A stretch of DNA of 64,000 bases from Minisyncoccota bacterium (GTDB taxonomy: Bacteria > Patescibacteriota > Minisyncoccia > Phycocordibacterales > UBA2100): contig JALHPE010000001.1 of NCBI GenBank assembly GCA_022842645.1, positions 264,178 to 328,177 on the forward strand, read 5' to 3'. Every line of letters starts with the position of its first letter. Positions within the stretch are counted from its first letter, which is position 1. The notes beneath the pieces were generated by a model. The model ran no database searches and was not told the DNA's origin. It saw only the letters and a program-made list of their open reading frames with translations. This document shows, in pieces, positions 2,659-39,158 of this stretch. A program made the position numbers and the translations under genes.

Positions 2659-3120
2659 TTACCACGCGAAGTGCGCGAATGCTTTATTGGCTTCTGCCAT
2701 GCGGTGCGTTGTTTCTTTCTTGGTGACTGCAGCGCCTTCACCTTTGTGAGCAGCTTTTATTTCGTTGAGGAGGGATTCGTGCATTGGCTTCCCCTTCGTG
2801 CCTTCTGCAGCATCTACCATCCAGCGCAGCCCGAGTGCAAGACGGCGTTCTGGACGAACTTCACGCGGCACTTGGTAATTCGCTCCGCCAACGCGACGTG
2901 AGCGTACTTCCACTGAAGGCGCGGCATTTTCAAGCGCCTGCTCAAAGAATGCGACTGGGTCGCCCTCCTTCTTAAGCTCATCGAATACCTTGTAGACGAT
3001 CTTGCGCGCCGTGTCCTTCTTGCCGCGCTCCATCACATAGTTGATGAGTTTAGAAACCTTAACCGAACCGTACACTTCGTCGGGTGAAGGCATGTTTCTG
3101 TTTTTGACAGGGCGGCGCAT
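2659..3120 (-). CDS. rpsG: 30S ribosomal protein S7
   Basis: Full-length S7 similarity (KFDELKKEGDPVAFFEQALENAAP, VGGANYQVP). Confidence 0.95.
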   Translation of the reverse strand: MRRPVKNRNMPSPDEVYGSVKVSKLINYVMERGKKDTARKIVYKVFDELKKEGDPVAFFEQALENAAPSVEVRSRRVGGANYQVPREVRPERRLALGLRWMVDAAEGTKGKPMHESLLNEIKAAHKGEGAAVTKKETTHRMAEANKAFAHFAW

Positions 3121-3160
3121 AAAATTAGGTTCTAGGTGTTAGGGGCTAGGTTTTAGGGAA
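3121..3160 (-). promoter_or_regulatory. conserved G-poor CCTAAAACC-TAGCCCCTAACACC leader motif (rpsL-rpsG intergenic)
   Basis: mRNA-sense TTCCCTAAAACCTAGCCCCTAACACCTAGAACCTAATTTT-ATG. The same about 30-nt motif recurs upstream of nusA and ppa. Confidence 0.5.
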
Positions 3161-19027: not shown

Positions 19028-19726
19028 TCATTTAGTCGCAAGTGTGGATAGCAACGTTTCCGCACGCGCAAGGTCTTCCGGTGCTTTTATCTCAATCCAC
19101 ATTGTTGCGCGAACGATATGAATTGGAATTGCATGTGCAAGTTTTAGCATCGTTTGCGGTAAGCCCAATTCACTTGAACCGACGGCCTTAGGAACAGGGA
19201 CGACGTCAAATATGCGCATGTCGAGTACATAGAGCCCCGTGTTTGCGAACCCTTTTTCACCCCCATGATCATCATTTTCAGCAATATCAGTAATGCGATC
19301 TTTTTGATCTACTACCACACGCCCGGTTCTAATACGGTCTTTCTCTTGCACCAAAACGGCCCAATTAGTAGTGTGTGTACACGTTGATATATCTGCTGAG
19401 GCGTAAATATTGTCCCCATTCATCACAAGAAAACGATCACGAAGGTGCGGTCGTGCAAGCCATAACGCTTGTGCAGTGCCTCCCGTTGGATTTTCTTGCA
19501 CAACATAAATAAGCTTCTTGCCGTTGTACGAATCTCCAAAGCGCTCAATGATTCTCTCTTTCAAGTAGCCAACAACAAGCACAATCTCGTGCACCTCCTC
19601 TGGAAGCGCATCAAATTTGTGCTCAAGAAGCGTCTTTCCGAATACAGAGAGCATCGGCTTCGGGAGCATGTGGGTCAGAAGTCCCATGCGAGTCCCCCTC
19701 CCCGCGGCTAAAATCACTGCTTGCAT
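19028..19726 (-). CDS. sugar-phosphate nucleotidyltransferase (NTP_transferase family)
   Basis: MQAVILAAGRGTRMG...LPKPMLSV G-rich motif. Start placed at Met34 because NTP-transferases begin at this motif. Confidence 0.8.
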   Translation of the reverse strand: MQAVILAAGRGTRMGLLTHMLPKPMLSVFGKTLLEHKFDALPEEVHEIVLVVGYLKERIIERFGDSYNGKKLIYVVQENPTGGTAQALWLARPHLRDRFLVMNGDNIYASADISTCTHTTNWAVLVQEKDRIRTGRVVVDQKDRITDIAENDDHGGEKGFANTGLYVLDMRIFDVVPVPKAVGSSELGLPQTMLKLAHAIPIHIVRATMWIEIKAPEDLARAETLLSTLATK

Positions 19727-19731
19727 AGATA

Positions 19732-19759
19732 GCTTGTAGAGTACAGCTTGTAGCTTGTA
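19732..19759 (-). repeat. TACAAGC heptamer repeats (2 tandem plus 1 after a degenerate unit) immediately upstream of the nucleotidyltransferase start
   Basis: mRNA-sense CACTACAAGCTACAAGCTGTACTCTACAAGCTATCT-ATG. Same heptamer family as in the pilin leaders. Confidence 0.6.
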
Positions 19760-19845
19760 GTGGGAAGCCCTGGTTGAATCTAAATTCGTGTACATAAAAA
19801 AGACCCGCCAGAGGTCCGAGAACATGGCGGGTCAGACGTGAAGTC

Positions 19846-24089: not shown

Positions 24090-24323
24090 ATGACTACGAT
24101 AGTAGATGCAACCGCAGCAAAAGACGATCTTTGGAAAGCACATCGAGAAAAACCGTGGGGAGCGTACGTTGTTGCAATGGGGGTCCGCCATGAAAACGGG
24201 GCTTGGTACATTCTTCTTATGCACGGAAAGAATCTCCCTGCCGACATAACTATTCCCACTGAGCACAAGGGGGTGCAAATTAAAAAAACACGCCTCACTT
24301 CCCTTTGTCGCACTTTAGTGTGA
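24090..24323 (+). CDS. hypothetical small protein (77 aa)
   Basis: GGAGAGGTGA SD before the ATG. Strong terminator 5 nt after the stop. Confidence 0.5.
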   Translation: MTTIVDATAAKDDLWKAHREKPWGAYVVAMGVRHENGAWYILLMHGKNLPADITIPTEHKGVQIKKTRLTSLCRTLV

Positions 24324-24327
24324 AAGC

Positions 24328-24361
24328 ATTGGCGCGATTCATTCGCGCCAATTTCTTTTAT
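24328..24361 (+). terminator. rho-independent terminator
   Basis: ATTGGCGCG-ATTCATT-CGCGCCAAT perfect 9-bp stem followed by TTCTTTTAT. Confidence 0.7.
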
Positions 24362-24498
24362 GGCTCTCAGCGAGACGGCACTCACAAAATGCTTTCCTCG
24401 GGTCGCTGTCTGGGCGTGCTCGCCCAGCGCTCAGTCTCGCGCCCGTCGGCGCTGCGAAGACCCTCGGAAAGCATTCTTGCGAGTGTCACGAGCACTCT

Positions 24499-26001
24499 CT
24501 ACTGTTCACGCCACAACACCAACTTATAATCCGGCGAAGCCGCAGGTGTAAACGGTGGTGGGTCGAACGCAAGCAAGCGATCATAGGTGTCGACGCGCGT
24601 GTTGTAGCCCGAACAGAATGAGCCGCTACAATTCCACTTCGTGCCCACGCGATTGTTTGAAACTACACTTCCGATCGTCGTAAGCGACGACTGTGTCACA
24701 AAGGAGTTATACGCAGACGGGACGCCGTTACTTCCTCCTTGTTGATATAAATTGCGCCCCAGGTAGCCATTCTGTGCAACGAAGACGCCGCGTATGGTCA
24801 TTACATCGGGCGAATTGAGTGGTATCAAAACCGAACGCTCAGCGACAGCCGTGAGCCCCGAAGCGCCCGAAGCAGAAGCGTAGGTAATGTTGTTCGAGAG
24901 AATAATGTCTGGTGAAAAACTTCCGGTGTCTGCCGCAACAATCGTCACTTTTCCGCCCACAACTCCCTCAATCCACACTTTCGCGCGTGCAAAAATTACT
25001 GGGCAATCTGACGGAATCGTGTAGCGTCCGTGATACGTCTGGTTGGAAATAATGTGGTAGTCCGTCACCCACGTACCGATGTTGTCGATACGTTGCGCAA
25101 AGACTCCCGTCGTTCCGGTGACGCGATAAATATCGACGGTGTTGTCGCCGCGAAGCACGATGCGGAATCCGCGCTGGTCGCTGCCGCCGACTGAAGAGAA
25201 CGTGCTTCCCTGTTGAACGCCGTCAACCCGCACCGTTGTTGTGTTGAGCATGATGCCGTCATTCGTCGCATACGTTTGAAGCGCAGGAAAATCGCTCGAG
25301 ATGCCGGCAAAATTAAATGACGCCGCGGGAAACTGCCAGAGCGCAGAGCCACTTCCCGCACCAAAAACGCCCGGGCGATTCTGCGTCGGAGAACATCCAA
25401 ACGATGATGTGCAACTCCATGTGGCAACCGAACTCGAGACAATAGAGTTATTCGTGCCATCCATGCGAATGCCGCCGTTCGAGTGATACGCACCCGTAAT
25501 ATTTCTGTCGGCCCCCGCCCACACGTTCGCATTAATGATATTGGAATATTCAGCGACCGAGGGGCGCATGTAACGTGCCTCCAGTGTACGACGAAAGACG
25601 GTATTCAAATCTGAAACACCTTCAGATACAAGATCCGCTGATTGCACAACACCACATGCAGTATTTAACGTCGCGCTCACTTGAGCGTCTCCCAGTGTTC
25701 CACCCTCGGGATCAACTACTTCATATGACGCGGGGGAAACGAGCCCCGTGCCGTCCACCATAATTTGAGGGTTGTGCGCGAGGAACCATCGATAAAATTC
25801 GAGTCCGCTTTCGGCGACATTCACCGCCTGCTCACGCGCATACAAAGCTCGCCCATAGCGCCCTTGCGTGAGCGTGTAACTTAAAATGGTGCCGAGGAGA
25901 AAGAGGAAGATACCCATGAAGGTGAGAACCAGGATCACGGTCACGCCCCGTTCTGCATGAGAGTTTGTAGTTTGTAGTTTGTAGTTTGTAGTTACATGCA
26001 T
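24499..26001 (-). CDS. large type IV pilin-like / pseudopilin protein (500 aa) with repeat-containing leader peptide
   Basis: Leader MHVTTNYKLQTTNSHAERG, then hydrophobic VTVILVLTFMGIFLFLLG typical of a prepilin N-terminal helix. Leader encoded by CTACAAA x4. Confidence 0.65.
   Translation of the reverse strand: MHVTTNYKLQTTNSHAERGVTVILVLTFMGIFLFLLGTILSYTLTQGRYGRALYAREQAVNVAESGLEFYRWFLAHNPQIMVDGTGLVSPASYEVVDPEGGTLGDAQVSATLNTACGVVQSADLVSEGVSDLNTVFRRTLEARYMRPSVAEYSNIINANVWAGADRNITGAYHSNGGIRMDGTNNSIVSSSVATWSCTSSFGCSPTQNRPGVFGAGSGSALWQFPAASFNFAGISSDFPALQTYATNDGIMLNTTTVRVDGVQQGSTFSSVGGSDQRGFRIVLRGDNTVDIYRVTGTTGVFAQRIDNIGTWVTDYHIISNQTYHGRYTIPSDCPVIFARAKVWIEGVVGGKVTIVAADTGSFSPDIILSNNITYASASGASGLTAVAERSVLIPLNSPDVMTIRGVFVAQNGYLGRNLYQQGGSNGVPSAYNSFVTQSSLTTIGSVVSNNRVGTKWNCSGSFCSGYNTRVDTYDRLLAFDPPPFTPAASPDYKLVLWREQ
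25964..25991 (-). repeat. heptanucleotide tandem repeat CTACAAA x4 (coding sense) inside pilin leader-peptide codons 4-13
   Basis: Plus strand TTTGTAG x4 at 25964-25991. 28 nt is not a multiple of 3, so a one-unit change shifts the frame. Confidence 0.85.
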
Positions 26002-26019
26002 AGGATTAAGAGTTACAAA

Positions 26020-26640
26020 CTACCTGAGGTTCCTAAGAGCAGCTGTGGATCTCAGAGTAAATTGATTCGGCATACGATTCGGATTGATGTTGACTATCAC
26101 CGTTGTTTCGACGAAACGCAGTTCAGTAATATCAGAAAGGTCGGTCATGAGGTTGCCATTCAAATCATAATACTTAAAGACATCTGTCGCTTGCTCGACG
26201 TTGCGTACATATTCTGAAAGCTGCGAGATCGTTTCTGGATTGGTATAAACCGGCGGATCGCCCGATGGATCGATGAGTCCGCGATAAAGTGCCCCACCTT
26301 GGATAAAAAATCGCAGTCGCTCGATGAAAGGATCGTCATCGATATCGGCGTAGAACGACATGGAACTCGTGGCAAGCGAAATGATGGGGTATGCGCCGTC
26401 AGAGGCATATGAGGCTTCACGAATTGTTTTCACCATGCCTTCAATACCACGCTGTGCTGATGTAATCGCTGCTGCCTGCTCAACCGTGTACGAGTTTGTG
26501 CGATAAAAATATTGCACCGACGTGGTGATCGCGAGCATGGCCGAGAGTGTGATCGCCACCCACACACTCGCCTCAATTAATGTCATGCCGCGGTTGGCAC
26601 AGTGTGTAGTGTGTAGTGTGTAGTGTGTAGTTTTATGCAT
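26020..26640 (-). CDS. type IV pilin-like protein with repeat-containing leader peptide
   Basis: Leader MHKTTHYTLHTTHCANRG followed by MTLIEASVWVAITLSAML (prepilin cleavage/methylation-type N-terminus). Alternative GTG start at 26667. Confidence 0.7.
   Translation of the reverse strand: MHKTTHYTLHTTHCANRGMTLIEASVWVAITLSAMLAITTSVQYFYRTNSYTVEQAAAITSAQRGIEGMVKTIREASYASDGAYPIISLATSSMSFYADIDDDPFIERLRFFIQGGALYRGLIDPSGDPPVYTNPETISQLSEYVRNVEQATDVFKYYDLNGNLMTDLSDITELRFVETTVIVNINPNRMPNQFTLRSTAALRNLR
26603..26630 (-). repeat. heptanucleotide tandem repeat CTACACA x4 (coding sense) inside pilin leader-peptide codons
   Basis: Plus strand TGTGTAG x4 at 26603-26630. Paralogous to the 25964-25991 repeat; both genes start ATGCAT..AA then heptamers. 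Confidence 0.85.
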
Positions 26641-26666
26641 AAAAGATTTTGAGCGCGCGAGTTTCA

Positions 26667-26687
26667 CTACAAACTACAGTCTACAGA
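26667..26687 (+). repeat. three CTACAxx heptamers in opposite orientation in the pseudopilin-pilin intergenic region (inverted relative to the leader repeats)
   Basis: Plus strand CTACAAA-CTACAGT-CTACAGA at 26667-26687. Forms an imperfect inverted repeat with 26603-26630 flanking the ATG at 26638-26640. Confidence 0.6.
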
Positions 26688-28438
26688 CTGTTGAGTATGA
26701 TTGATAACCTCGATGTTCCCGACACATTCACTTCAGTCGAATTAAATGTTTGATAGCCGCTTGCCGATGCTTCAATAGTGTATGCGTTTCCTCCACCAAC
26801 ACTTCCCGCACTGAGACTGCTCCAAAAAGCGTTGCCGCAGGTGTCGCTCGTACGCGTCACATCAAAGCCGCCGCGCGTAAGGCGCACCGATGCGTTCGGT
26901 ATTACTACCCCCGCACTTGTCTTCACATCAACAAGAAGAGAATTCGTCGTCTGCGGAGAAAGAATGATTCGCGTTGTCTGCGCCGAGTTCGGCGTGAGTG
27001 TTTCCGGCTGCGGTGCACATGCTGAAGAAATATCATATCCACTGGTGTCGGGCACGATCACCGTGTACGCGTCCCACTCAAGATTCTGAATGAGGAGAGA
27101 TCCGGATGCGCCACTCGAATGAGTCGAATCATACTTATAGATGAGCGCCCCGCCAGCGGTGGTGCCGATTGTTTTTGCACCGCGCAGTGTAAACGAAACA
27201 TTCGGAAGCGGATGCGGGCCAGAATCATACGAGAGTCTCCAAGCGTCCACTGACGGCGTCGTCGATGCATTCCCTGTTGTGAGACGCCCGCGCACGACGA
27301 GTCCGGGATAGGTTGACGTTGAAACACCACTCACATTAATCGGTGACATGGTGAACCCGCCACTGTTTCCCGGGAGCTGCGAATCAGAAACGAGCGTTGT
27401 GCCAGAGCTGTCATACAGTTGTATATAGAGAGCGGTGCCACTCGGCGTATTTGCATCCCACGAAAGTGTTTTCCACGCGACAAGCGTCGAGGTTGAAACG
27501 ACGTTTGAAAAGAATGTACCTTCAAAGGGGTATTCGCCCGCCGTCTCGGTGAGCGCCACAATGCCTCCTGCAATCGTGACGTTTGATGTCGATGCAGTTC
27601 CTGCACCACCTGAAAATGTTTCCGTTGTCGTTGCGGTTGTGACCGGCGTGTATGTTTCAATGCGCTTTTCTGAAACGCGATCAATCGCAAAGGTTCCCGC
27701 AGTCGTGGTATCGAGCGCGACGGCAAGATGCGCAGGGATAGGATTCGTATTCGTTGCGTTTGCGGCATAGGTACGCGCAGTGGAGTAACCAGTTTTCGTA
27801 ACAGTAATCTGATAGCCGGCTCCTGGAGGCACACCTAAAATAGTTGCCTTGCCGTTTTCGTCAGTGAAACGCGTGAGATCAATCGTGGGAACGAGCGTGG
27901 TATTCACGACTTCCACCTCTGCGTTTGAAACAGGAAGAAGTGCGGCGTCCACCACTTCAATTGCAAGAACACCGCCCGGCACCGAGGCTTCAATTCCCGG
28001 AGGAGAAACGCGTGTGAGGAGTTCAATAGTGTGCACACCATCGCGCCCATTCCACGAAACTTGCGACTTCACCGCTTTGTAATCCGTTTCAATGCCATTT
28101 TCATCTGCACCACCAAGTCCATCCGCCGGATCATCTTCGTAGGAAATAAAAGTTCGGCGCGTGTAGGGCACATCATTGAGTTCGATACTTTCAACTTGTG
28201 CGAGCGCACCCGCAGGAATGCCACCAGCAGTCCCGACCGCGTTATAAGAAAGTGAACGAATGAATTCGAGTCGCTCGTTTGCAAGTGCAATCGCTCCCGC
28301 CCGCGCCTTGTTATTCCCCACCGCCATCACAGTCAAACGAAATGCGCCGGCAATACCGACAAACACCACAAGCATGAGCGCAGTGCCCACCACCGCATCA
28401 AGTAGCGTCGAACCTCGTTCCCCGCGAGGAAACCACAT
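26681..28438 (-). CDS. large pseudopilin-like protein (about 586 aa)
   Basis: Short leader MWFPRGERG then STLLDAVVGTALMLVVFVGIAG hydrophobic helix. Start placed at Met19, which leaves the 28455-28482 terminator hairpin outside the gene. TACAAT 8 nt upstream of this ATG. Confidence 0.65.
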   Translation of the reverse strand: MWFPRGERGSTLLDAVVGTALMLVVFVGIAGAFRLTVMAVGNNKARAGAIALANERLEFIRSLSYNAVGTAGGIPAGALAQVESIELNDVPYTRRTFISYEDDPADGLGGADENGIETDYKAVKSQVSWNGRDGVHTIELLTRVSPPGIEASVPGGVLAIEVVDAALLPVSNAEVEVVNTTLVPTIDLTRFTDENGKATILGVPPGAGYQITVTKTGYSTARTYAANATNTNPIPAHLAVALDTTTAGTFAIDRVSEKRIETYTPVTTATTTETFSGGAGTASTSNVTIAGGIVALTETAGEYPFEGTFFSNVVSTSTLVAWKTLSWDANTPSGTALYIQLYDSSGTTLVSDSQLPGNSGGFTMSPINVSGVSTSTYPGLVVRGRLTTGNASTTPSVDAWRLSYDSGPHPLPNVSFTLRGAKTIGTTAGGALIYKYDSTHSSGASGSLLIQNLEWDAYTVIVPDTSGYDISSACAPQPETLTPNSAQTTRIILSPQTTNSLLVDVKTSAGVVIPNASVRLTRGGFDVTRTSDTCGNAFWSSLSAGSVGGGNAYTIEASASGYQTFNSTEVNVSGTSRLSIILNSL

Positions 28439-28454
28439 ATAACTATTGTAGCGT

Positions 28455-28482
28455 GAAAAAGCGACCGAGTTTCCCCGGTCGC
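28455..28482 (-). terminator. rho-independent terminator (minus strand)
   Basis: GCGACCG-GGGAAACT-CGGTCGC hairpin followed by TTTTTC in minus sense. Confidence 0.55.
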
Positions 28483-28500
28483 TTGCTTGCACCCTACCAC

Positions 28501-28866
28501 TTACATCTGCACATCCCGCGCTTCAGTGAGCAGTTTGATGATGTCGCCTTTGGAAACCCAGGAGCGGTCATTGTAGTCGCCCGCATTTTCACATTGGCCT
28601 CGTGTCTTCTTTCGCACTAACGCATCTAGCTCAAGGTCACACGATTCCACTACATCAAAAGGCGCGCGGATGCTCCCGCCACCGCCATAGACAGCGCCCA
28701 GGGCGCAACAACACACAACATGAGAACGATTGTTGTACAGATCATCCCTGTCTAACAGCCATCCTGTTGCATCTCGTCCGTAACTTTCTTTCAAAAGCTT
28801 ACGCTGTTGAAGATACTGAATAGCAGCATCAAAGATGCGCCATTTCGTCGAACGTTTTTTTGTCAT
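28501..28866 (-). CDS. hypothetical protein (121 aa)
   Basis: ORF with CCCALGAVYGGGGS segment. No domain recognised. Confidence 0.45.
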   Translation of the reverse strand: MTKKRSTKWRIFDAAIQYLQQRKLLKESYGRDATGWLLDRDDLYNNRSHVVCCCALGAVYGGGGSIRAPFDVVESCDLELDALVRKKTRGQCENAGDYNDRSWVSKGDIIKLLTEARDVQM

Positions 28867-29078
28867 TCTGTCCTCCTGTGGCAGATGATTGTAGGCTCAT
28901 TTCCGCTCACACCCTACCCCAAGACTTCTACTTTTCCAACCCCACCAACCTAAGCGAGACGAGTTGTGAAAATGTACTTTTGACGGGGCCCCGCAGGCGA
29001 CGGCCGAGGATTTTGAGGTATTTTTCCAGCAGGAAAAATCCGTGCCCGTCAAAAGTACATTTTCACAACTCGCGAGCC

Positions 29079-30296
29079 CTAAATATTCTCCGAAAGCTGA
29101 TAGATCGGCGAGATCATCGCAACTGCGAAGAAGCCCACAGCGCCGCCAATTGCGATCATGAGAAACGGCTCAATCACCGTCGACATATCTTTCGTCTTTC
29201 GGTCCACCTCATCTTCGTAAAAGATAGCGAGTTTTTTCATCATGTCGGTAAGCTGCCCTGTTTCTTCTCCCACCGCCATCATCTCCCCCACAAACGCCGG
29301 ATAGAGGTGTTCGTTCCGCACAAAGGCAGCAGAGAGTGGCTCGCCCTTCCCCACATTCTCACGCGCCTCCACGACCACTGCCTTGAAATAACTGTTCTGC
29401 ACCACATCCGTCACAATCTCAAGCGAAGTAATCACATCCACGCCGGAAGAAAGGAGTGACGAGAGTGTGCGCGAAGCACGCGCCGCGTTCACTTCTTTCA
29501 CAATAGGACTAATAAGCGGGATGTGGAGGAATATAAAATCACGCACCCGAGACCCCGTCGCCGTTTTCACAAACGCAAAGATGCCACCAAAGAAAAGTAC
29601 AACCGCCGAAAATGCGACCACCGTGTAAGAGACTAGAAAATTAGAAACCGCGATGATTGCTTTTGTGGAAGCGGGAAGCTCCGCATCCATTTCCGCAAAG
29701 GTCTGTGCCAGGGTTGGCACCACGTTGATCATCATGAAAGCACCAATACCAATGATCGCAAACACTATAATGGCGGGATACAGGAGCGCGCCGCGAATCT
29801 TCTTCTTCAAAACATACATGCGCTCCATTTGTTCTGAAACAACCACAAGTGACTGCGAGAGCTGCCCGCCTTCCTCACCCGCACGAGTCATCGCGATAAA
29901 CAGTTTTGAAAAGATGCGCGGAAACTTCGCGAGTGCGGAGTGAAGCGTCTCGCCGCGGCGCACTGCGCCTGAAAGTTCGGTCACCACTTCAGCAAGGCGC
30001 GCATTCTTTGTCTGTCGCTCAATCACCGCAAGCGCACGCGCAAGCGAGAGCCCCGCAGAAAGCATCGCACCAAGGTTTCGCGCAAAGAGCACTTTGTCAT
30101 ACTCCGGGACGCTTGAAATCTTTGCATTCCAGTGCGCGAGTGAAAACCAAGACTTCGCCCCATCTTCCTCAACCGAAAGAATGCGACCACCCTCGTGGCG
30201 AACAATTTCATAAAGCGCAAAACGATCTTTCGCATCTGCGGTTCCCTTGTACACTTCCCCTCCCGCTTTCTCAGCAGTGTAAGTAAATTTCGCCAC
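29079..30296 (-). CDS. pilC: type IV pilus assembly / type II secretion platform protein PilC/GspF
   Basis: Two GspF repeats, about 406 aa from a GTG start (VAKFTYTAEKAGGEVYKG). The 132-aa upstream extension in the track is not PilC-like and overlaps a terminator and the 108-aa gene. TATAAT hexamer 6 nt upstream of the GTG. Confidence 0.85.
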   Translation of the reverse strand: MAKFTYTAEKAGGEVYKGTADAKDRFALYEIVRHEGGRILSVEEDGAKSWFSLAHWNAKISSVPEYDKVLFARNLGAMLSAGLSLARALAVIERQTKNARLAEVVTELSGAVRRGETLHSALAKFPRIFSKLFIAMTRAGEEGGQLSQSLVVVSEQMERMYVLKKKIRGALLYPAIIVFAIIGIGAFMMINVVPTLAQTFAEMDAELPASTKAIIAVSNFLVSYTVVAFSAVVLFFGGIFAFVKTATGSRVRDFIFLHIPLISPIVKEVNAARASRTLSSLLSSGVDVITSLEIVTDVVQNSYFKAVVVEARENVGKGEPLSAAFVRNEHLYPAFVGEMMAVGEETGQLTDMMKKLAIFYEDEVDRKTKDMSTVIEPFLMIAIGGAVGFFAVAMISPIYQLSENI

Positions 30297-30323
30297 ACAG
30301 TCATTATACCGTGCAAAAACATG

Positions 30324-30353
30324 CAAAAAAAAGAAGCGGGGGGTTCCCGCTTC
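30324..30353 (-). terminator. strong rho-independent terminator (minus strand)
   Basis: GAAGCGGG-AACCC-CCGCTTC followed by TTTTTTTTTGC in minus sense, directly after the 108-aa ORF stop. Confidence 0.75.
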
Positions 30354-30678
30354 AGTCACCTTCTTTAGATGATCTATTTCTAGCACTCTCGAGAGCTTCG
30401 AAGTGACCATCCACATGCACCCGAAACTCTTCCCATTGATTCCGTGACAGTTCGAGTGCCGCGGAAAAAACTCCCGTAGAGCACTCGACAAAAAGTGTTC
30501 GGACAAAATCTTCAGCTTTTGTATTTCCACCAAAACCACCAATAAAGAACTCGATATGTTTCTTGGTAAGCCGCAGATCGTGAAGAAGCGGCGGTCGATT
30601 ATGCACTTCGCGCCAAAACGAATCGAGTGTTTTCTCTTCGCGTAGCTTTTGTAGGTCGACAATGTTGTCTGTAGCCAT
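30352..30678 (-). CDS. hypothetical acidic protein (108 aa) between pilB and pilC
   Basis: Clean ORF in a different frame from the spurious PilC extension. Followed by a strong terminator. Confidence 0.5.
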   Translation of the reverse strand: MATDNIVDLQKLREEKTLDSFWREVHNRPPLLHDLRLTKKHIEFFIGGFGGNTKAEDFVRTLFVECSTGVFSAALELSRNQWEEFRVHVDGHFEALESARNRSSKEGD

Positions 30679-30737
30679 GTCTCACACCTCAAGGACGTTG
30701 CTGTTTTGAATATATCATCGGAGTCGTATCAAGCAAC

Positions 30738-32471
30738 CTATTCGGTAATCACCCTCAAAACCTCCTCTATTGTAGTAACCCCTTGCGATGCCTTAAAAAT
30801 TCCATCCTCAAGCATCGTAAGCATCCCCTCCTTTCGTGCCTGGTCGTGAATATCATCCGCCGTTGCATTCTTCATAACGAGCTCTTTTGTGGTCGCGCTC
30901 ACGGGAAGCACTTCGTAAATCCCCATACGCCCCGCAAAACCGTCACCCCCGCCATCAGTTTTCGGCTTCCAAAACGGCACGTTTTTCCACGTGGCATCCG
31001 GGGGAATAATTTTTTCCTCTTTCAGCGACTTAAGTACTATTCCCGCTTCAACTACGTGCTCAAGTTGTTTCTGTTCGTCGCGCGAGAGTTCATACTTCTC
31101 TTTCCCACCCGCAAGCTTACGCACGAGGCGTTGCCCGATCACCACCCGCAGCGTTGAAACCAAGAGAAACGGCTCAACACCCATGTCAAGAAGACGCGGA
31201 ATCGCACCCGCTGCGGAGTTTGTGTGAAGCGTTGAGAGCACTAAGTGCCCCGTAAGAGCCGCATTAATCGCAAGTGAGGCCGTTTCTTTATCACGAATCT
31301 CCCCCACCATGATGATGTCGGGATCCTGACGCACGAGTGAGCGAAGTCCATTTGCAAACGTGAATCCAATCTCTGGGCGCACCTGCGTCTGATTCACCCG
31401 CTTCATCTGATACTCAATCGGATCCTCAACGGTCGAAATATTTACGTCGGGCGTGTTCACCAGATCAAGGAGCGTGTAGAGCGTCGTTGATTTACCGGCG
31501 CCCGTCGGCCCCGTGGTGAGAATGAGTCCTGTCGTTTTCTTCATCGCCTCATGCATGTCTTCCAATGCTTTACCATGAAAACCAAGTGCCTCAAGCGAAA
31601 ATCCTGAGATGTTATCGCGGAGGAGTCGCATGACAATCTTCTCTCCATAGTAGGTAGGCAAAATGGAAACACGAAACGAAATTTTCTCGCCCCCTGCTTC
31701 AACACCAAAACGACCATCCTGGGGAAGACGCTTTTCATCAAGGCGCATGTTCGCCAACACTTTCACACGCGCGGTAATCGCAGGAGCCGCATGCTTAGGG
31801 AGCTCCATCGCGTCATGAAGGAGCCCATCGATGCGATACCGAATAAGAAGCGTCTCTTCTAGAGGCTCGATATGAATGTCTGAGGCGCCCTGCGCATTTG
31901 CGTGACGCAGAAGCGTGTCCACAATACGCACTGCGGGCACCCCTTCAGCCATCTTGCGCTCGTCATCCCCCGCGCCAGCACCCTCAGCGGCCAAGACATC
32001 CGTCTCGCGCTTGATGACATCTCCTAAATTATCTTTAAGCCCGCGCTGGTACTGCTTCAGCGCCGCTTTAATAGACGGAGCATCGGTGAGGCGCGGCAAG
32101 ACCTTCAGGCGCGTCTTCTTCTTAATGAAATCAATCGCTGCCAAGTCATCGGTATCGAGCATCGCCACTTCAAGCTCCTCGCCTTTGTGATTGTAGGCAA
32201 CGATGTTATTTCTGCGCGCGACAGGCTCAGGAATAAGAGAAAGCGTGTCAAAAGGAATCTTCTGTGTGGCAAGGGAAATAAAAGGAATGCCGAGAATGTA
32301 GGCATAGGTGCGACGAAGTTCGTCTTCGCCAATCAGTGCACGCCCAATTAAGATGTCGCCCACCGGCTGATTGCGCTCCTTAGCCTCCTGATCCGCTGCG
32401 TCAAAATCTTTCTGCGAAACCAAATTCGCATCAGAAAGAAATGTTTTTAGTTGCTGGTCAGAAATGTACAT
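30738..32471 (-). CDS. pilB: type IV pilus assembly ATPase PilB / GspE
   Basis: Walker A GPTGAGKST, Asp box, His box, GspE N-terminal domain. Start placed at MYISDQQLK. Confidence 0.9.
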   Translation of the reverse strand: MYISDQQLKTFLSDANLVSQKDFDAADQEAKERNQPVGDILIGRALIGEDELRRTYAYILGIPFISLATQKIPFDTLSLIPEPVARRNNIVAYNHKGEELEVAMLDTDDLAAIDFIKKKTRLKVLPRLTDAPSIKAALKQYQRGLKDNLGDVIKRETDVLAAEGAGAGDDERKMAEGVPAVRIVDTLLRHANAQGASDIHIEPLEETLLIRYRIDGLLHDAMELPKHAAPAITARVKVLANMRLDEKRLPQDGRFGVEAGGEKISFRVSILPTYYGEKIVMRLLRDNISGFSLEALGFHGKALEDMHEAMKKTTGLILTTGPTGAGKSTTLYTLLDLVNTPDVNISTVEDPIEYQMKRVNQTQVRPEIGFTFANGLRSLVRQDPDIIMVGEIRDKETASLAINAALTGHLVLSTLHTNSAAGAIPRLLDMGVEPFLLVSTLRVVIGQRLVRKLAGGKEKYELSRDEQKQLEHVVEAGIVLKSLKEEKIIPPDATWKNVPFWKPKTDGGGDGFAGRMGIYEVLPVSATTKELVMKNATADDIHDQARKEGMLTMLEDGIFKASQGVTTIEEVLRVITE

Positions 32472-32574
32472 ACGGTTTCCCTGCCGTGGATGCGTGCAGT
32501 ATAGCAAGAAAGCCCAGGACACTGCCCGGGCTTTCTGTACATTATTACCGTATCGGTCGTGCGCATCCTATCGG

Positions 32575-32823: not shown

Positions 32824-32861
32824 TACTAACACCTAAAACTTAGCCCCTAACACCTAATCCT
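32824..32861 (+). promoter_or_regulatory. conserved G-poor leader motif ACTAACACCTAAAACTTAGCCCCTAACACCTAATCCT before nusA ATG
   Basis: Shares CCTAAAAC and TAGCCCCTAACACCTA blocks with the rpsG and ppa upstream regions. No SD. Confidence 0.5.
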
Positions 32862-34100
32862 ATGGCTCTCTTCGACCTCAAAGTATTGAATAGCGCGCTC
32901 GACGAACTGCAGGCAGAAAAAGGCATCTCCCGCGACTCCGTCGTGGAAGCGATCGCAACCGCACTCGCCGCGGCCTATCGCCGTGAATACGGTAAGCGCG
33001 GGCAAATCATTCGCGCCACCTTCAACCCTGAAACGGGCGATCTTGAATTCCGTCAGGCAAAAATTGTTGTGGATGACACTCTTGTACGCAAAGAAGACGA
33101 AGAGCCAATTTCCGAGGAAGACCACCGATCCCGCTTTAACCCCGAGCAGCACATCATGCTCGAAGACGCCCGCCGCATAAAGAAAGACGCCGAACTCGAC
33201 GAAGAGATCTCGTTCCCGCTTGAAACCCAAGAAGAATTCGGCCGTATCGCCGCACAAGCCGCAAAGCAAGTGGTCATGCAGAAAATCCGCGAGGCAGAAC
33301 GTTCTTCTATCATCTCCGAATATGGCGAACGCGAAGGAGAGATTGTCACCGGCCACGTGCAGCGCTTTGAACGCGGCAATCTCTTCATTGACCTCGGCCG
33401 CGCAACCGCCATCCTTCCTTATGACGAACAGATTCCCGGCGAGAGATACCGCCAAGGCGAGCGTGTGCGCGCACTCCTCTTGCGAGTAGACGAGGGCGTC
33501 CGCGGCACCTTCATCCGCCTCTCCCGCTCCCACCCACGCTTCCTGACCAAGCTTTTTGAAGCTGAAGTGCCAGAAATGGCGCAAGGCATCGTTGAGGTGA
33601 AGGGTGTCGTCCGCGAGCCAGGCAGCCGCGCAAAGATTGCCGTATTCTCAAACGATGATCACATCGATCCTGTTGGATCTCTCGTCGGTCAGCGCGGCGT
33701 ACGTGTCGCCGTTGTCACGTCTGAACTCGGCGGTGAAAAAATCGATGTCGTCGAATGGTCGCAAAACACGGGAGATTTCGTGAAAGAAGCACTCAAGCCT
33801 GCGCAAGTTCTCGGCATTGAACTCACCGAAGAAGAAAACCGCGCGGTCGTTACTGTCACCGAAGATCAGCAATCACTCGCAATTGGTCGTGGTGGTCAAA
33901 ACGTCCGCCTCGCCGCCCGCCTCACTGGCTGGAAAATCGACATCCGCTCTATGGGCGGCGATCAGGTTGGTGGCGAAGAAGTGAAAGAGGAGAAAAAGGA
34001 AGTAGGACCTGAAGAGGTCGCCGAAGTTTCTGAGGAAGTTGTTGAAGAATCTCCTGCGGAGACATCTGCCGATGAATCTACACCTAAAGAAACCGCATAA
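32862..34100 (+). CDS. nusA: transcription termination/antitermination factor NusA
   Basis: N-terminal domain, S1 and two KH domains (GQRGVRV, IGRGGQNVRLA). Acidic C-terminal tail. Confidence 0.9.
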   Translation: MALFDLKVLNSALDELQAEKGISRDSVVEAIATALAAAYRREYGKRGQIIRATFNPETGDLEFRQAKIVVDDTLVRKEDEEPISEEDHRSRFNPEQHIMLEDARRIKKDAELDEEISFPLETQEEFGRIAAQAAKQVVMQKIREAERSSIISEYGEREGEIVTGHVQRFERGNLFIDLGRATAILPYDEQIPGERYRQGERVRALLLRVDEGVRGTFIRLSRSHPRFLTKLFEAEVPEMAQGIVEVKGVVREPGSRAKIAVFSNDDHIDPVGSLVGQRGVRVAVVTSELGGEKIDVVEWSQNTGDFVKEALKPAQVLGIELTEEENRAVVTVTEDQQSLAIGRGGQNVRLAARLTGWKIDIRSMGGDQVGGEEVKEEKKEVGPEEVAEVSEEVVEESPAETSADESTPKETA

Positions 34101-34484: not shown

Positions 34485-34519
34485 CATTACCTAACACCTA
34501 GCCCCTAAAACCTCATTGT
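34485..34519 (+). promoter_or_regulatory. conserved G-poor leader motif CATTACCTAACACCTAGCCCCTAAAACCTCATTGT before ppa ATG
   Basis: Third copy of the CCTAACACC / TAGCCCCTAAAACC motif family. Confidence 0.5.
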
Positions 34520-35056
34520 ATGAACCTTTGGCACGACATTCCTCTCGGCGAAGACGCACCGAATGAAATTAACGTCATTGTTGAAGTGCCGAAAGGCTCT
34601 CCCAATAAATACGAAATAGACAAAGAGACCGGCATTATCAAGCTCGACCGCGCAAATTACTCTGCCGCCGCGTTTCCGTGCGATTACGGCTTTGCACCCC
34701 AAACGCTCTGGGAAGACGGGGATGCCCTAGACGTGGTCATCCTTGCCACATTCCCTATCCCGAGCGGGATACTCGTTAAAGTCCGTCCGGTTGCCGTTAT
34801 GGAAATGATTGATACGGGCGAGAGCGATTACAAGATCATCGCCGTTCCCGTTGACGACAAGCGCTGGGAAGACGTGCAAGACCTCGCCGACGTCAACAAA
34901 CATACACTCAAAGAAATTCAACACTTCTTCGAGACGTACAAAGCTCTAAAAGGAAAGCCGGCGGTAGTCGAAGTAAAAGGATTTAAGGGCAAATCCGAAG
35001 CAATTCCCGCGATTACAAAATCTGTCGAACTCTACAAAGCAAAATTTAGTAAGTAG
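34520..35056 (+). CDS. ppa: inorganic pyrophosphatase (family I)
   Basis: Full-length family I PPase similarity (EVPKGSPNKYEIDKETG, DGDALDVV). Confidence 0.95.
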   Translation: MNLWHDIPLGEDAPNEINVIVEVPKGSPNKYEIDKETGIIKLDRANYSAAAFPCDYGFAPQTLWEDGDALDVVILATFPIPSGILVKVRPVAVMEMIDTGESDYKIIAVPVDDKRWEDVQDLADVNKHTLKEIQHFFETYKALKGKPAVVEVKGFKGKSEAIPAITKSVELYKAKFSK

Positions 35057-35933: not shown

Positions 35934-35979
35934 CGCCATCTATTTTCTAATATCTACCATCTAATATCTTCCCCTCCTT

Positions 35980-36366
35980 ATGGACCCCCTCACTCAAAAT
36001 CAAAACCCCATCACAACCGGTAGTCAGATGCCGCCGCAGATGCCAAGTTCAGAACCTGAGCGTTCTCCCATGGGCCCAGTTGCAGGCGCTGTGATTGTTA
36101 TCGTACTCCTCGTCGCAGGTGGCCTCTACTTCTATGGCGCAAAACTCAATCGAGAAACCATGATGAAAAACAACGCACCGTACATACCATCGGACACAAT
36201 GATGGAAGAAACATCGATAATGCCTACTGAAGCATCGATGGATACCATGGTCGGCCTTCCTTCACAAAGCAGTTCCGATGACGTCTCTTCCATTGAAGCA
36301 GATCTGAATGCAATGGATATGGGTGCAATCGAATCCTCAAACCAGGCTGAACTGAATAATCTCTAA
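35980..36366 (+). CDS. hypothetical membrane protein (128 aa)
   Basis: Pro/Ser-rich N-terminus, one TM helix (GAVIVIVLLVAGGLYFYG). Confidence 0.5.
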   Translation: MDPLTQNQNPITTGSQMPPQMPSSEPERSPMGPVAGAVIVIVLLVAGGLYFYGAKLNRETMMKNNAPYIPSDTMMEETSIMPTEASMDTMVGLPSQSSSDDVSSIEADLNAMDMGAIESSNQAELNNL

Positions 36367-38304: not shown

Positions 38305-38904
38305 ATGAAAAACACACCCATAACCGCACAAATGTTAGTCCCGATGGTCGTTGAGAAAACCACCATGGGCGAGCGCGCCTATGACATCTACTCCCGCCTT
38401 CTGAAAGAGCGCATTGTCTTTCTTGGCGGCCCGATTGACGACCACGTGGCGAATCTCGTGATCGCTCAGCTCCTTTTCTTAGCAAGCGAAGATCCAAAGA
38501 AAGATATTTCTTTCTATATCAATTCCCCTGGTGGACACGTCTCGTCCGGCCTCGCGATCGTAGACACCATGAATCATATCCAGCCGGATGTCTCGACTGT
38601 GTGCGTTGGTATGGCGGCCTCCATGGGTGCGGTACTTCTCTCAGCGGGTAAAAAGGGCAAACGCTTCGCGCTTCCGAATGCCGAAGTGATGATTCACCAA
38701 CCTTCAGGCGGTGCAGAAGGCCAGGCGTCCGATATCGCGATAACCGCGAAGCACATACTTGCAACACGTGAGCGCTTGAACAAAATTCTTGCGAAAAATA
38801 CCGGACAGTCAGTTAAAAAGATCGAAACTGACGTCGATCGCGACTTCTTTATGACCGCCGACGAAGCAAAAACCTACGGCGTCATTGACAAAGTGCTCGA
38901 ATAG
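38305..38904 (+). CDS. clpP: ATP-dependent Clp protease proteolytic subunit
   Basis: [33 protein letters not shown] and catalytic Ser/His/Asp context ([11 protein letters not shown]). Start is either 38305 or 38332; the track start at 38179 overlaps the antisense gene. Confidence 0.9.
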
Positions 38905-39158
38905 TTGGACAGGTTACAGGTTTTAGGGTTTAGTTTTTAGAGGCTTTTGTTTTATGGCTTATATAAAGGTTATTCCCAGAACCTACCGCCCATTCCCTAC
39001 AACCTAGTGAGGTGCTATAGTGCATGTACACCTTACCATTTATGTCACTTTACACCGCGCACCTCTCTATCAAAGCGCACTCTAACCGTGTCTTTCTATC
39101 AATGAACTCTGTCACACGAATGCAGGCGTACTAGAGGCGCGTGGTTAAATCCACGCAT

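Follow-up and report, generated by a model that had tools for sequence, protein, structure and literature searches.

In Kaiserbacteria, a cassette of inverted heptamer arrays is found repeatedly at the gene junctions of a three-gene pilin unit (g3, g2 and g1). The CTACAAA ×4 tract in the leader codons of a large pilin gene forms the 3′ arm of one such cassette and is translated. The full cassette comprises a 5′ arm of ~4.5 heptamers, usually (TAG-N4)n, whose first TAG also terminates the preceding gene; an A-rich loop, often holding the ATG; a complementary 3′ arm of ~4.5 heptamers, (N4-CTA)n, which forms the in-frame prepilin leader cleaved after Gly-1; and a conserved Arg-Gly junction. Unit sequences differ between cassettes, and the two arms match within each cassette. 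In the window (the whole 64 kb stretch of DNA analysed, from a tiny uncultured bacterium of Kaiserbacteria), the g2 cassette is full and the g1 cassette has lost most of its 5′ arm. Judged from the sequences compared, the tract is best read as one arm of a recurring, probably hairpin-forming cassette of fixed size rather than as a demonstrated on/off switch. Its function is most likely that of a putative mRNA hairpin or expression element at cistron junctions. The features are as follows, in window coordinates.

24499..26001, minus strand: g1, 500-aa putative ComZ-like large pilin, third and last gene of the three-gene pilin unit
25945..26001, minus strand: g1 leader-peptide codons MHVTTNYKLQTTNSHAERG, with ATG at 26001-25999 and Gly-1 at 25947-25945; the mature protein begins with GTG at 25944
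25962..25993, minus strand: period-7 run A + ACTACAA ×4 + ACT, 3′ arm of the g1 cassette, translated TTNYKLQTTN
26014..26023, minus strand: remnant 5′ arm GTAGTTTGTA of the g1 cassette, containing the g2 TAG stop (26022-26020)
26020..26640, minus strand: g2, 206-aa pseudopilin, leader MHKTTHYTLHTTHCANRG/MTLIEA, with its ATG at 26640 in the hairpin loop
26599..26631, minus strand: twin array ACTACAC ×4 + ACTGT, 3′ arm of the g2 cassette, translated TTHYTLHTTH
26665..26691, minus strand: 5′ arm ACAGTCTGTAGACTGTAGTTTGTAGTG of the g2 cassette, UAG-N4 ×3, containing the g3 TAG stop (26683-26681)
26681..28438, minus strand: g3, 585-aa pilin-like protein with CarboxypepD_reg domains, leader MWFPRGERG/STLLD, without a cassette in the window
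28436..28482, minus strand: hairpin resembling a terminator, with a T-run, followed by TACAAT, a 6-nt gap and the g3 ATG
29079..32522, minus strand: PilC and PilB pilus machinery

The tract and its pilin unit

Direct reading of the minus strand gives the start of g1 as ATG CAT GTA (26001-25993), followed by ACTACAA ×4 (25992-25965) and ACT (25964-25962). The initial annotation had described a perfect CTACAAA ×4 repeat in the leader codons of a 500-aa pilin-like gene, and this was borne out: the repeat at 25964-25991 is perfect and occupies codons 4-13, and TRF called the run at 25962-25993 with period 7, 4.6 copies and 100% matches. The reading frame (24499-26001, minus strand) is open over 500 aa, and its leader region reads MHVTTNYKLQTTNSHAERG/VTVILVL. 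The 64 kb contain just two perfect tandem repeats with a unit of 5-9 nt and at least three copies, the g1 tract and 26601-26631, and the pattern ACTACANACTACANACTACA gave 7 matches with 0.00 expected in shuffles. The second repeat belongs to g2, the next gene upstream of g1, which shares the design ATGCAT-NNA-(ACTACAC)×4, so that the joint pattern of the two genes is ATGCAT-NNA-(ACTACAM)×4.

The predicted hairpin of the g2 cassette has a free energy of -32.4 kcal/mol (z = -4.5). At g1, the inverted partial copy previously noted upstream of the ATG is indeed present as GTAGTTTGTA at 26023-26014, where it overlaps the g2 TAG stop and is complementary to one and a half units of the g1 array; the relative L177 has 4.6 units at this place. 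The stem that it forms with the array (10 bp, -16.5 kcal/mol, z = -1.9) was equalled in 8 of 200 shuffles and is therefore not significant alone. The loss of most of the 5′ arm leaves a largely unpaired, G-free, CA-rich array directly after the AUG.

Gly-1 is kept in 124 of 130 distinct g1 homologues, with all four Gly codons in use, and the preceding Arg/Lys is conserved at the protein level with synonymous codons. There is no in-frame ATG, GTG or TTG between the tract and the prepilin junction. The conservation of Gly-1 irrespective of codon and the missing start codon in that interval mean that the tract has to be translated; together with the conservation of Arg/Lys, they rule out a translation start 3′ of the tract. 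Gly-1 is likewise kept in 116 of 121 distinct g2 homologues and in all 106 distinct g3 homologues.

An exact-protein look-up of g1 returned no match (the identical sequence in our protein collection is P0126), and neither Pfam nor NCBIfam, including pilin families such as N_methyl, matched it. The model of g1 (pLDDT 89.8) has a helix at residues 16-76 and matches ComZ (PDB 6qvi) with a Foldseek E-value of 1.2e-9, a probability of 1.0, a TM-score of 0.30 and 13-15% identity, the next unrelated match having E = 0.2. By predicted fold similarity, g1 matches a ComZ-like competence pilin. Profile searches with g2 (Pfam, NCBIfam) gave GspI only, with E = 0.12; among the g2 homologues, one contains PF07963 and several bear the name PulG or PilV in their source records. 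Residue +5 is Leu in g1 (VTVILV), Glu in g2 (MTLIE) and Asp in g3 (STLLD), so Glu+5 is found in g2 only. Glu5 is missing from some minor pilins.

The placement of these genes in a type IV pilus cluster holds, as the genes for T2SSF/PilC (29079-30692) and T2SSE/PilB (30738-32522) adjoin the pilin unit. The hairpin/TACAAT region at 28436..28482 is likely to be the start of a g3-g2-g1 transcription unit. We also considered the cassettes as intrinsic terminators and rejected this, as they have no T-run; a canonical T-run terminator sits upstream of g3 instead.

Cassettes in relatives and tests of phase variation

The comparison set comprised 611 kb of related loci (L-numbered) and homologous proteins (P-numbered), with 42 distinct cassettes catalogued. 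In about half of the close relatives, inverted heptamer arrays flank the start codons in the leaders of three consecutive pilin genes, and at least eight different unit types occur among the cassettes. Perfect arrays of at least 2.5 copies numbered 33 for period 7 and 0 for periods 8-12 in the 611 kb; nearly all of the 33 lie at g3/g2/g1 leaders and almost none in other intergenic DNA of those loci. The median arm complementarity score was 28.5 within cassettes versus 12 between cassettes. Arms mostly measure 4.3-4.7 units and at most 5.1, even where the unit types are unrelated (>40 cassettes). The upstream stop is TAG in 13/22 (g1) and 8/9 (g2) cassette-bearing alleles, compared with 18/105 (g1) and 25/107 (g2) alleles without a cassette (p about 1e-4), and in cassette-free relatives the stop and start codons overlap or adjoin (ATGA, TAATATG) and leaders are 4-10 aa long. 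An in-frame ATG is kept in 41 of 42 cassettes, with 5-8 expected after a 7-nt shift; the sole exception, L002, has ATT at the ATG position and an intact frame. The ATG lies in the loop in some cassettes and upstream of both arms in others. The arms are imperfect, and their variable unit positions are often mismatched without compensation.

A conserved loop motif, GCATTTCC, was considered and set aside: it occurs in ~1/4 of cassettes versus an 18% background with the relaxed pattern and is a subfamily trait at most. With Rfam at gathering thresholds, four tRNAs alone matched in the window, and a search of 25850-26800 with E up to 10 gave one chance match of 13.6 bits; the cassette corresponds to no known RNA family. 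The literature on heptanucleotide repeats in pilins or CPR bacteria yielded no description of the cassette.

Strains with at least 90% protein identity differ by the presence, absence or replacement of whole cassettes: L084 has none, L081 has one at g1 only, and L083 has other types at both genes. Units also turn over, as g1 has ACTACAA in the window and ACTACGA in L081, and g2 has ACTACAC ×4 versus ACTACAA ×3 + ACTACAC. The same unit type, TAGCCAC, is found at g1, g2 and g3 in different genomes, and L011 has near-identical cassettes at all three pilin genes. This exchange of cassettes among close relatives and the sharing of one type by different genes would be expected of a palindromic microsatellite or selfish cassette that is non-adaptive and functionless, built from slippage arrays and template-switch copying between arms and tolerated in a leader that is cut off. 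In-frame palindromic coding insertions are known from the Rickettsia palindromic elements. In addition, heptameric SSRs are over-represented in many bacteria, for which polymerase slippage has been proposed (PMC4692102). We nevertheless regard this explanation as somewhat unlikely: neutral slippage would not be expected to give a fixed arm size of ~4.5 units in unrelated unit types, the placement is highly specific (nearly all perfect arrays at three leaders, almost none in other intergenic DNA), and the upstream stop codon is consistently the point at which the 5′ arm begins.

The initial annotation had proposed a slipped-strand phase-variation switch. Its mechanical premises hold: the unit is not divisible by three and lies in translated codons, a change of one unit shifts the frame, and in simulation g1 copy numbers of 2, 3, 5 and 6 gave ORFs of 17-58 aa, while 1, 4 or 7 copies keep or restore the frame. 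The same off-frame copy numbers of the g2 array gave ORFs of 16-24 aa. The tract could then be a contingency locus, in which slipped-strand unit changes would switch the ComZ-like pilin, and independently g2, on and off and so vary the composition of the pilus tip; the four identical units and the unit turnover between relatives imply ongoing slippage-like homogenization. Assembly breaks point in the same direction. The runs SRR28154519, SRR28154524 and SRR28154531 contain the strain of the window at 100% identity. Two k=31 Logan contigs from different runs, L173 and L174, are identical to the window and both end at 25964, just before fully periodic 31-mers, with the g2 array crossed without a break, and in other populations scaffold gaps and contig ends coincide with the cassette. 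However, contig breaks are common in those assemblies anyway, and a 7-mer repeated four times is a short tract.

The comparison of alleles went against the switch. Repeat number, expected to vary under it, is 4 units in every related ACTACNN-family allele (the window, L081/L082, L177, L098 and L020 from DNA; P0124, P0028 and P0029 from peptides), and no array exceeds 5.1 units in >40 cassettes. None of the 42 distinct cassettes is a frameshifted (OFF) allele, in a test that would detect 34-37 of 42 7-nt shifts. In another population, eight assemblies, each from its own sample, have the same sequence, the non-coding arm included, and close strains vary by whole cassette rather than by unit. Homologues of 478, 481 and 483 aa were considered as phase-OFF alleles and rejected, their truncations being due to N-gaps, contig ends and gene-caller choices: P0139, P0144 and P0154 adjoin N-gaps or contig ends, and in P0133 an in-frame ATG is present that the gene caller ignored. 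Of the proposed switch, the translated tract and its frame-breaking unit stand, whereas copy number is uniform and no frameshifted allele occurs among relatives. A slip that shifts the frame would turn the gene off, but there is no sign that this serves as a switch, and we consider a contingency locus improbable. A short perfect leader repeat is not by itself evidence of phase variation; here the comparison among relatives changed the reading.

Heptad arrays elsewhere and the putative role of the cassette

The motif (TAG-N4)×3 occurs 12 times in the window versus 0.09 expected, and controls with N3 and N5 spacers gave 0. In 1.27 Mb, the spacing CTA-N4 was found 143 times, and no other spacing exceeded 8. 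Several genes, rpsG, nusA and ppa among them, have a sense-strand (CTA-N4)4-5 array 3-19 nt before their ATG; in the rpsG, nusA and ppa arrays CTA is constant and N4 differs from unit to unit. An array upstream of a nucleotidyltransferase gene is present in both the window and L085 with different units. The fixed distance between these comparable arrays and the rpsG, nusA and ppa starts downstream, and the conservation of the nucleotidyltransferase array despite its different units, also count against a non-adaptive origin of the cassettes. Many genes here show TAnnnT + 6-7 nt + ATG. For this reason the arrays were considered as -10 promoter boxes of leaderless transcripts, an idea that was set aside because the last T is missing from the units and the distance to the ATG varies.

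The explanation that we tentatively favour overall is a recurring inverted-heptamer cassette of fixed size with an inferred role on mRNA at pilin cistron junctions. Arrays would arise and be homogenized by slippage or register-shifted repair, and selection would keep their size constant. The hairpin would act on the mRNA, tying or throttling the translation of each downstream pilin cistron relative to the preceding one, a role that direct stop/start overlap (ATGA, TAATATG) would fill in cassette-free relatives. Since arrays of this kind also stand before housekeeping genes, the CTA-N4 array may in itself serve as an expression element. The points counted for this explanation are the twin array in g2, period-7 specificity, arm matching within cassettes, the stability of the g2 hairpin, the fixed arm size, the enrichment of TAG stops, the overlaps in cassette-free relatives, the in-frame arms, and the (TAG-N4)×3 and CTA-N4 arrays; the lack of an Rfam family match was also listed. 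Counted against it are the weak hairpin at g1 itself (10 bp, z = -1.9) and the imperfect arms, and the different or missing cassettes in strains of at least 90% identity, a pattern that suits a mobile or dispensable element better than it suits an essential regulator. With two ATG placements, a single mechanism may not fit all cassettes.

Folding of the opposite strand also counts against it. The antisense fold is more stable in 35 of 42 cassettes, by a mean of 5 kcal/mol (Wilcoxon p = 3e-5), with 168 versus 86 G-U pairs, and a strand-neutral count gave 88 A.C versus 40 G.U. Unless due to coding constraint, such an asymmetry is surprising in a sense-mRNA structure; it would fit an antisense transcript or a hairpin of non-coding-strand ssDNA as the functional molecule, with the sense leader codons merely its complement. 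Such a constraint is at hand: all stops begin with T and every frame of the heptamer array is read, so C is favoured over T in the translated arm, and we reason that the exclusion of stops alone can create sense-strand A.C mismatches. The pair counts are inflated by repeated units and related cassettes, and 24300-28700 contained nothing resembling a promoter for antisense transcription. A functional antisense molecule seems very improbable.

The strict spacing, with four to five units per array, may instead reflect a protein. An oligomeric factor reading one short core per 7 nt, on RNA or DNA, is a decidedly doubtful proposal, although a conserved trinucleotide with variable 4-nt spacers, as at rpsG, nusA and ppa, is hard to obtain from slippage alone. 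The models for such a factor would be a HutP-like RNA site (UAG-N4-UAG-N4-UAG) or a DNA site like that of the RHH omega/ParB protein of pSM19035 (at least four contiguous heptads). HutP binds three XAG motifs with sequence-independent spacers (PMC2425495), and omega needs at least four contiguous heptads, direct or inverted (PMC9499535). The 5′ arm of g2, UAGACUGUAGUUUGUAG on the sense strand, contains at least three UAG with 4-nt spacers. Control of the pilin genes and of the housekeeping genes with CTA-N4 arrays by one such factor would be no less doubtful: several cassettes have no CTA or TAG at all (e.g. ATACGGA, AATCACG, AGGGACA/CCCTCCAT, CTTCTCA), L034 holds three different unit types in one genome, and the trait common to all cassettes is arm complementarity and not a sequence core. 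Housekeeping arrays carry CUA rather than UAG on the mRNA, and neither HutP nor another candidate binding protein was identified among the ~19 window proteins scanned against Pfam.

Another arrangement, which we judge unlikely, would combine both kinds of array. The (CUA-N4)4-5 arrays and their inverted partners would form an undescribed class of cis-acting expression elements in Kaiserbacteria, recruiting or positioning the ribosome, or a heptad-reading factor, at housekeeping start codons. In the pilin operon the array would sit in disposable leader codons and be masked by an upstream anti-array beginning at the preceding stop, so that each pilin would be made only when the previous one is translated. 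Kaiserbacteria seem to depend on leaderless mRNAs and stop/start coupling and not on Shine-Dalgarno sites. To our knowledge, CPR bacteria are not yet open to manipulation, and little has been learned of their translation signals. Their pilus is presumed to serve in taking up DNA and in contact with a host. If the cassette is regulatory, it offers a first look at how these bacteria set the stoichiometry of minor and tip pilins. Arms of ~4.5 heptamers across unrelated units, together with the periodic motif before rpsG, nusA and ppa, suggest a measuring of RNA or DNA in 7-nt steps. If the tract varies in reads, it would be the first contingency locus described in CPR, acting on a putative DNA-receptor pilin.

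Comparison with known systems

The best-known counterpart of a leader repeat is that of Neisseria opa, in which CTCTT pentamers in signal-peptide codons cause slipped-strand phase variation; the opa CTCTT repeats were reportedly described by Stern et al. in 1986. In both cases a unit not divisible by three lies in the cleaved N-terminal signal or leader codons of a surface protein, and a change of one unit shifts the frame. The opa tracts are long, their copy number varies between and within strains and ON/OFF alleles are common, whereas the tract here has a fixed 4 units, no OFF allele in 42 cassettes and an inverted partner array.

Intercistronic hairpins, REP-type palindromes and Rickettsia palindromic elements can modulate translation or mRNA stability or persist in frame. 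Like the cassette, they place palindromic DNA at cistron junctions or in frame within coding sequence, but they are not tandem heptamers and are scattered genome-wide, and the cassettes here are confined to three pilin leaders. We know of no leader repeat in comZ. ComZ of Thermus thermophilus (PDB 6qvi; PMC6561018) is likewise a large pilin (~500 aa) built of an N-terminal helix and a body rich in beta structure, encoded in a pilus/competence cluster; sequence identity (13-15%) and TM-score (0.30) to g1 are low, and the likeness is one of predicted fold.

For HutP, which acts at the Bacillus subtilis hut terminator and recognizes three XAG motifs in a 21-mer of 7-nt units (PMC2425495), the likeness is at least three UAG at 4-nt spacing in one strand of a hairpin controlling downstream expression. 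The 5′ arm of L017, AGUUUUUAGUUUUUAG, resembles the crystallized HutP-bound (UUUAGUU)3 RNA (PMC2425495). Unlike HutP sites, many cassettes have no UAG, the housekeeping arrays carry CUA, and the hairpins have no terminator T-run. The omega operators/parS of pSM19035 are also contiguous direct and inverted 7-bp repeats, of which at least four are needed for the function of omega, an RHH ParB (PMC9499535). Omega, however, reads one defined heptad consensus, whereas here a single genome can contain sites with different units (L034, L001 and the window).

Heptameric SSR families were described in Xanthomonas (GGGAATC) and Nostoc (GGGGAYT) by Rehm et al. 2015 (PMC4692102). They share with the arrays here a 7-nt unit with partly conserved positions, mostly four units, some inverted stem-loop pairs, and length and sequence that vary between close species. 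The Xanthomonas and Nostoc repeats are G-rich, G-quadruplex-forming and intergenic, whereas the arrays of this CPR lineage are not G-rich (ACTACAA and ACTACAC have no G), have a CTA/TAG core and lie in leader codons or at start codons.

The heptamer tracts at the g1 and g2 starts

Three consecutive pilin-like genes lie downstream of PilC and PilB, in agreement with the placement of the repeat-bearing gene in a type IV pilus cluster by the initial annotation:

26681–28438, minus strand: g3, pilin-like gene with CarboxypepD_reg domains
26020–26640, minus strand: g2, pilin-like gene with the junction G/MTLIEA
24499–26001, minus strand: g1, last of the three pilin-like genes, carrying ACTACAA ×4

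On the minus strand, the g1 start reads ATG CAT GTA (26001–25993), four ACTACAA units (25992–25965), and ACT; in the other register, the same tract is CTACAAA ×4 (25991–25964). This direct reading and TRF (25962–25993, period 7, 4.6 copies, 100% matches) confirm the proposed four-unit repeat. The inverted partial copy reported upstream of the ATG is also present, as GTAGTTTGTA at 26023–26014, and overlaps the TAG stop codon of g2. Just one other perfect repeat of this kind occurs within the 64 kb, and a relaxed repeat pattern had 7 matches in the window vs 0.00 in shuffled sequences. The g1 open reading frame encodes 500 aa, with the leader MHVTTNYKLQTTNSHAERG followed by VTVILVLTFMGIF. Gly-1, the residue before the prepilin cleavage junction, is kept in 124 of 130 distinct homologues and is encoded by all four Gly codons, which shows that translation covers the leader's end. 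Since in the window there is also no in-frame ATG, GTG, or TTG from the tract to Gly-1, the tract is read by the ribosome, and its assignment to the leader codons stands. The g1 homologues come from Candidatus Kaiserbacteria/Paceibacteria MAGs. An AlphaFold model of g1 built on 37 homologues (pLDDT 89.8) contains an N-terminal helix of 60 residues and a body rich in beta structure, and its only significant Foldseek match (E = 1e-9) was ComZ (6qvi), a competence pilin of Thermus (PMC6561018).

The g2 start (26640–26601) shares with g1 the design of ATGCAT-NNA and a perfect ×4 array: ATG CAT AAA, (ACTACAC)×4, and ACT, coding for MHKTTHYTLHTTHCANRG followed by MTLIEA. Upstream of the g2 ATG, ACAGUCUGUAGACUGUAGUUUGUAGUG, an imperfect reverse complement of the array, begins within the last g3 codons and includes the g3 TAG stop. 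This cassette, i.e. a 5′ arm, a loop, and a complementary 3′ arm of heptamer arrays, spans 26599–26691 (minus strand). Its predicted folding energy is −32.4 kcal/mol (z = −4.5; as good in 0 of 200 shuffles), with the g2 AUG in a hairpin loop of about 39 nt. In g1, the 5′ arm is reduced to one and a half units (10 bp, z = −1.9); the related locus L177 carries an intact version (TAGTTTG TAGAGTG TAGACTG TAGTCTG TAG ... ATG ... CTACAAA ×3 CTACACA).

Several other features were observed around these genes. A DUF6197 gene (28501–28866, minus strand) is located between pilC and g3 in the window and in contig L173; L081, a relative with 91% identity, lacks it at that position. Between pilC and this gene is a perfect inverted repeat of 28 nt (28960–28987 / 29045–29072, arms 57 nt apart). 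Downstream of g1 there is a 17-nt inverted repeat (24388–24404 / 24459–24475, 88% complementary, 54 nt apart), and Logan contigs L175 and L176 begin between its arms, at ~24438.

Cassettes in related loci

Among the matches listed, the survey covered 80 loci from metagenomes, 77 from genomes, and 17 obtained by exact protein look-up. The first 611 kb of loci contained 33 perfect period-7 arrays with ≥2.5 copies and none with a period of 8–12, and nearly all of the 33 were found at g3, g2, or g1 leaders. Forty-two distinct cassettes were catalogued, a count that takes in related sequences. The 5′ arm is often (TAG-N4)n and starts at the upstream stop codon, the loop is A-rich and often contains (T)ATGAAA, and the complementary 3′ arm is translated in frame and followed by Arg-Gly. 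The upstream stop is TAG in 13/22 g1 alleles with a cassette vs 18/105 without, and in 8/9 vs 25/107 for g2. The units are diverse (ACTACAA, ACTACGA, GTGGCTA, GAAAACT, ATACGGA, AAGCTGA, AATCACG, and AGGGACA/CCCTCCAT). The median arm match score, which is inflated by repeated units, is 28.5 within a cassette vs 12 between cassettes, and high between-cassette scores are confined to unit families. Arm length clusters at 4.3–4.7 units, with a maximum of 5.1. These comparisons establish the anatomy of the cassette, the translation of its 3′ arm, arm complementarity with co-variation between cassettes, and a fixed size. In the g1 leader of L083 (1968–2057), a period-7 arm (AGGGACA ×3.7) is paired with a period-8 arm (CCCTCCAT ×3), the only non-heptamer arm seen.

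When alleles were binned by sequence identity across the first 90 aa of mature g1, the g1 cassette was present in 5/9 at ≥75% identity, 13/29 at 60–75%, and 4/89 below 60%. Cassette-free relatives have an ATGA overlap or a TAATATG-type adjacency and leaders of 4–10 aa. The g1 leaders of six loci (L001, L002, L010, L011, L014, and L015) contain, immediately upstream of the Arg-Gly codons, a second perfect hairpin that is GC-rich and has these codons as its 3′ arm; in L010 it is a 30-nt in-frame insertion relative to the P0142 allele.

Repeat number and reading frame

The initial annotation had proposed the tract as a candidate phase-variation switch, in which gain or loss of a heptamer unit would shift the frame of the pilin gene. 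The frame mechanics hold: in simulations, the frame is maintained with 1, 4, or 7 copies, and 2, 3, 5, or 6 lead to the anticipated premature stop, after 16–58 codons. However, the expected difference in repeat number between related strains was not found, as ACTACNN-family alleles all have four units, both in DNA (window, L081/L082, L177, L098, and L020) and in peptides (P0124, P0028, and P0029), and the g2 arrays of the window and L001/L085 have four units each. Eight assemblies of one population are identical, including the non-coding arm, and about 15 contigs carry one and the same leader. None of the 42 cassettes is frameshifted, and an in-frame ATG is kept in 41 of them vs 5–8 expected after a 7-nt shift; the single exception has ATT where its relatives have ATG. 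Gene calls starting inside the helix were considered as frameshifted alleles and rejected, being explained by N-gaps, contig ends, or start-codon choice. Very close strains differ by the whole cassette rather than by unit number: 90%-identity clusters contain the window allele, an ACTACGA allele, the unrelated AGGGACA/CCCTCCAT cassette, and cassette-free alleles (MKNERG). One finding speaks for heterogeneity: L173 and L174, Logan (k=31) contigs of two different runs, match the window with full identity over 4177 and 1747 nt, and both end at 25964, immediately before fully periodic 31-mers, with the g2 array crossed. Such ends would be expected if a longer array co-existed or if the array were repeated at a second locus, but this is only a lead because the same assemblies break at other places too. 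A copy-number switch is improbable. The cassette is a recurrent breakpoint in assemblies, with N-runs over the g2–g1 junction in scaffolds L161, L162, and L164, and contig L163 starting just after the junction.

Possible roles and known parallels

Our preferred, tentative reading, inferred from the arrangement of the cassette, is that it acts at the RNA level. The hairpin, with its 5′ arm starting at the upstream stop codon, would gate or throttle initiation of the downstream pilin cistron, and would take the place of the direct overlap of stop and start codons in relatives without a cassette. Against this role stand the weak g1 hairpin, the uncompensated mismatches between arms, and the fast turnover of cassettes by gain, loss, and replacement. 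Less likely, the cassette is a palindromic microsatellite, neutral or selfish, that persists because the leader is cleaved off and tolerates it. A further point against the RNA-level role is that the antisense strand folds better in 35 of the 42 cassettes (mean 5 kcal/mol; L001–L160 and the window), and A·C oppositions outnumber G·U by 88 to 40. This bias may tentatively be ascribed to avoidance of T-initiated stops, whichever frame of the translated arm is read. A function of the antisense strand or of ssDNA is very improbable.

Related arrays were also identified beyond the pilin leaders. The window has 12 occurrences of TAG-N4-TAG-N4-TAG vs 0.09 expected, and 0 with 3- or 5-nt spacers; across 1.27 Mb of loci, CTA spaced by 4 nt was counted 143 times vs ≤8 for any other spacing. 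The non-pilin arrays are on the sense strand, 3–19 nt upstream of start codons; the five in the window are (CTA-N4)4–5 and lack an inverted partner:

3118–3156, minus strand: before rpsG
19724–19760, minus strand: before a nucleotidyltransferase gene (also in L085, with other units)
32826–32864, plus strand: before nusA
34491–34522, plus strand: before the inorganic pyrophosphatase gene (ppa)
35940–35982, plus strand: before a small membrane protein gene
loci other than the window: before HIT and tpiA genes

The rpsG, nusA, and ppa arrays have CTAACAC, CTAAAAC, and CTAGCCC units in common, in differing order; slippage alone does not account for this pattern of a constant CTA with variable four-base spacers. 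The CTA-N4 array is possibly an expression element in its own right. In E. coli, CA-rich sequences after the start codon act as translational enhancers. Many window genes have a −10-like TAnnnT, 6–7 nt, and then ATG, with no Shine-Dalgarno motif (e.g. 47310, 48102, 24030, 55713, 63057, 5998, 13921, and 28438), which suggests that leaderless mRNAs are widespread in this organism. A (TAG/CAG-N4) array at 38902–38940 (plus strand), which starts at the clpP stop codon and lies in the spacer before an RNase Y-like gene, resembles a lone 5′ arm.

Binding of the arrays by a heptad-reading protein is improbable. Proteins can read a 7-nt register, as at HutP sites (PMC2425495) and in omega/ParB, for which four heptads can be the functional minimum (PMC9499535), but the cassette arrays lack the sequence specificity that defines both systems. 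In Neisseria opa, the repeat lies in signal-peptide codons, as in g1; the pilin cassettes, however, show no copy-number or ON/OFF variation among the alleles compared. No Rfam family matches the cassette, and no description of it was found in the literature. The closest structural parallel is the heptameric SSRs of Xanthomonas and Nostoc, which mostly have four units, are in some cases inverted, and have a partly conserved unit (PMC4692102), but, unlike the cassette arrays, are G-rich and intergenic. The cassette is therefore classed as heptameric SSR arrays in a new setting.
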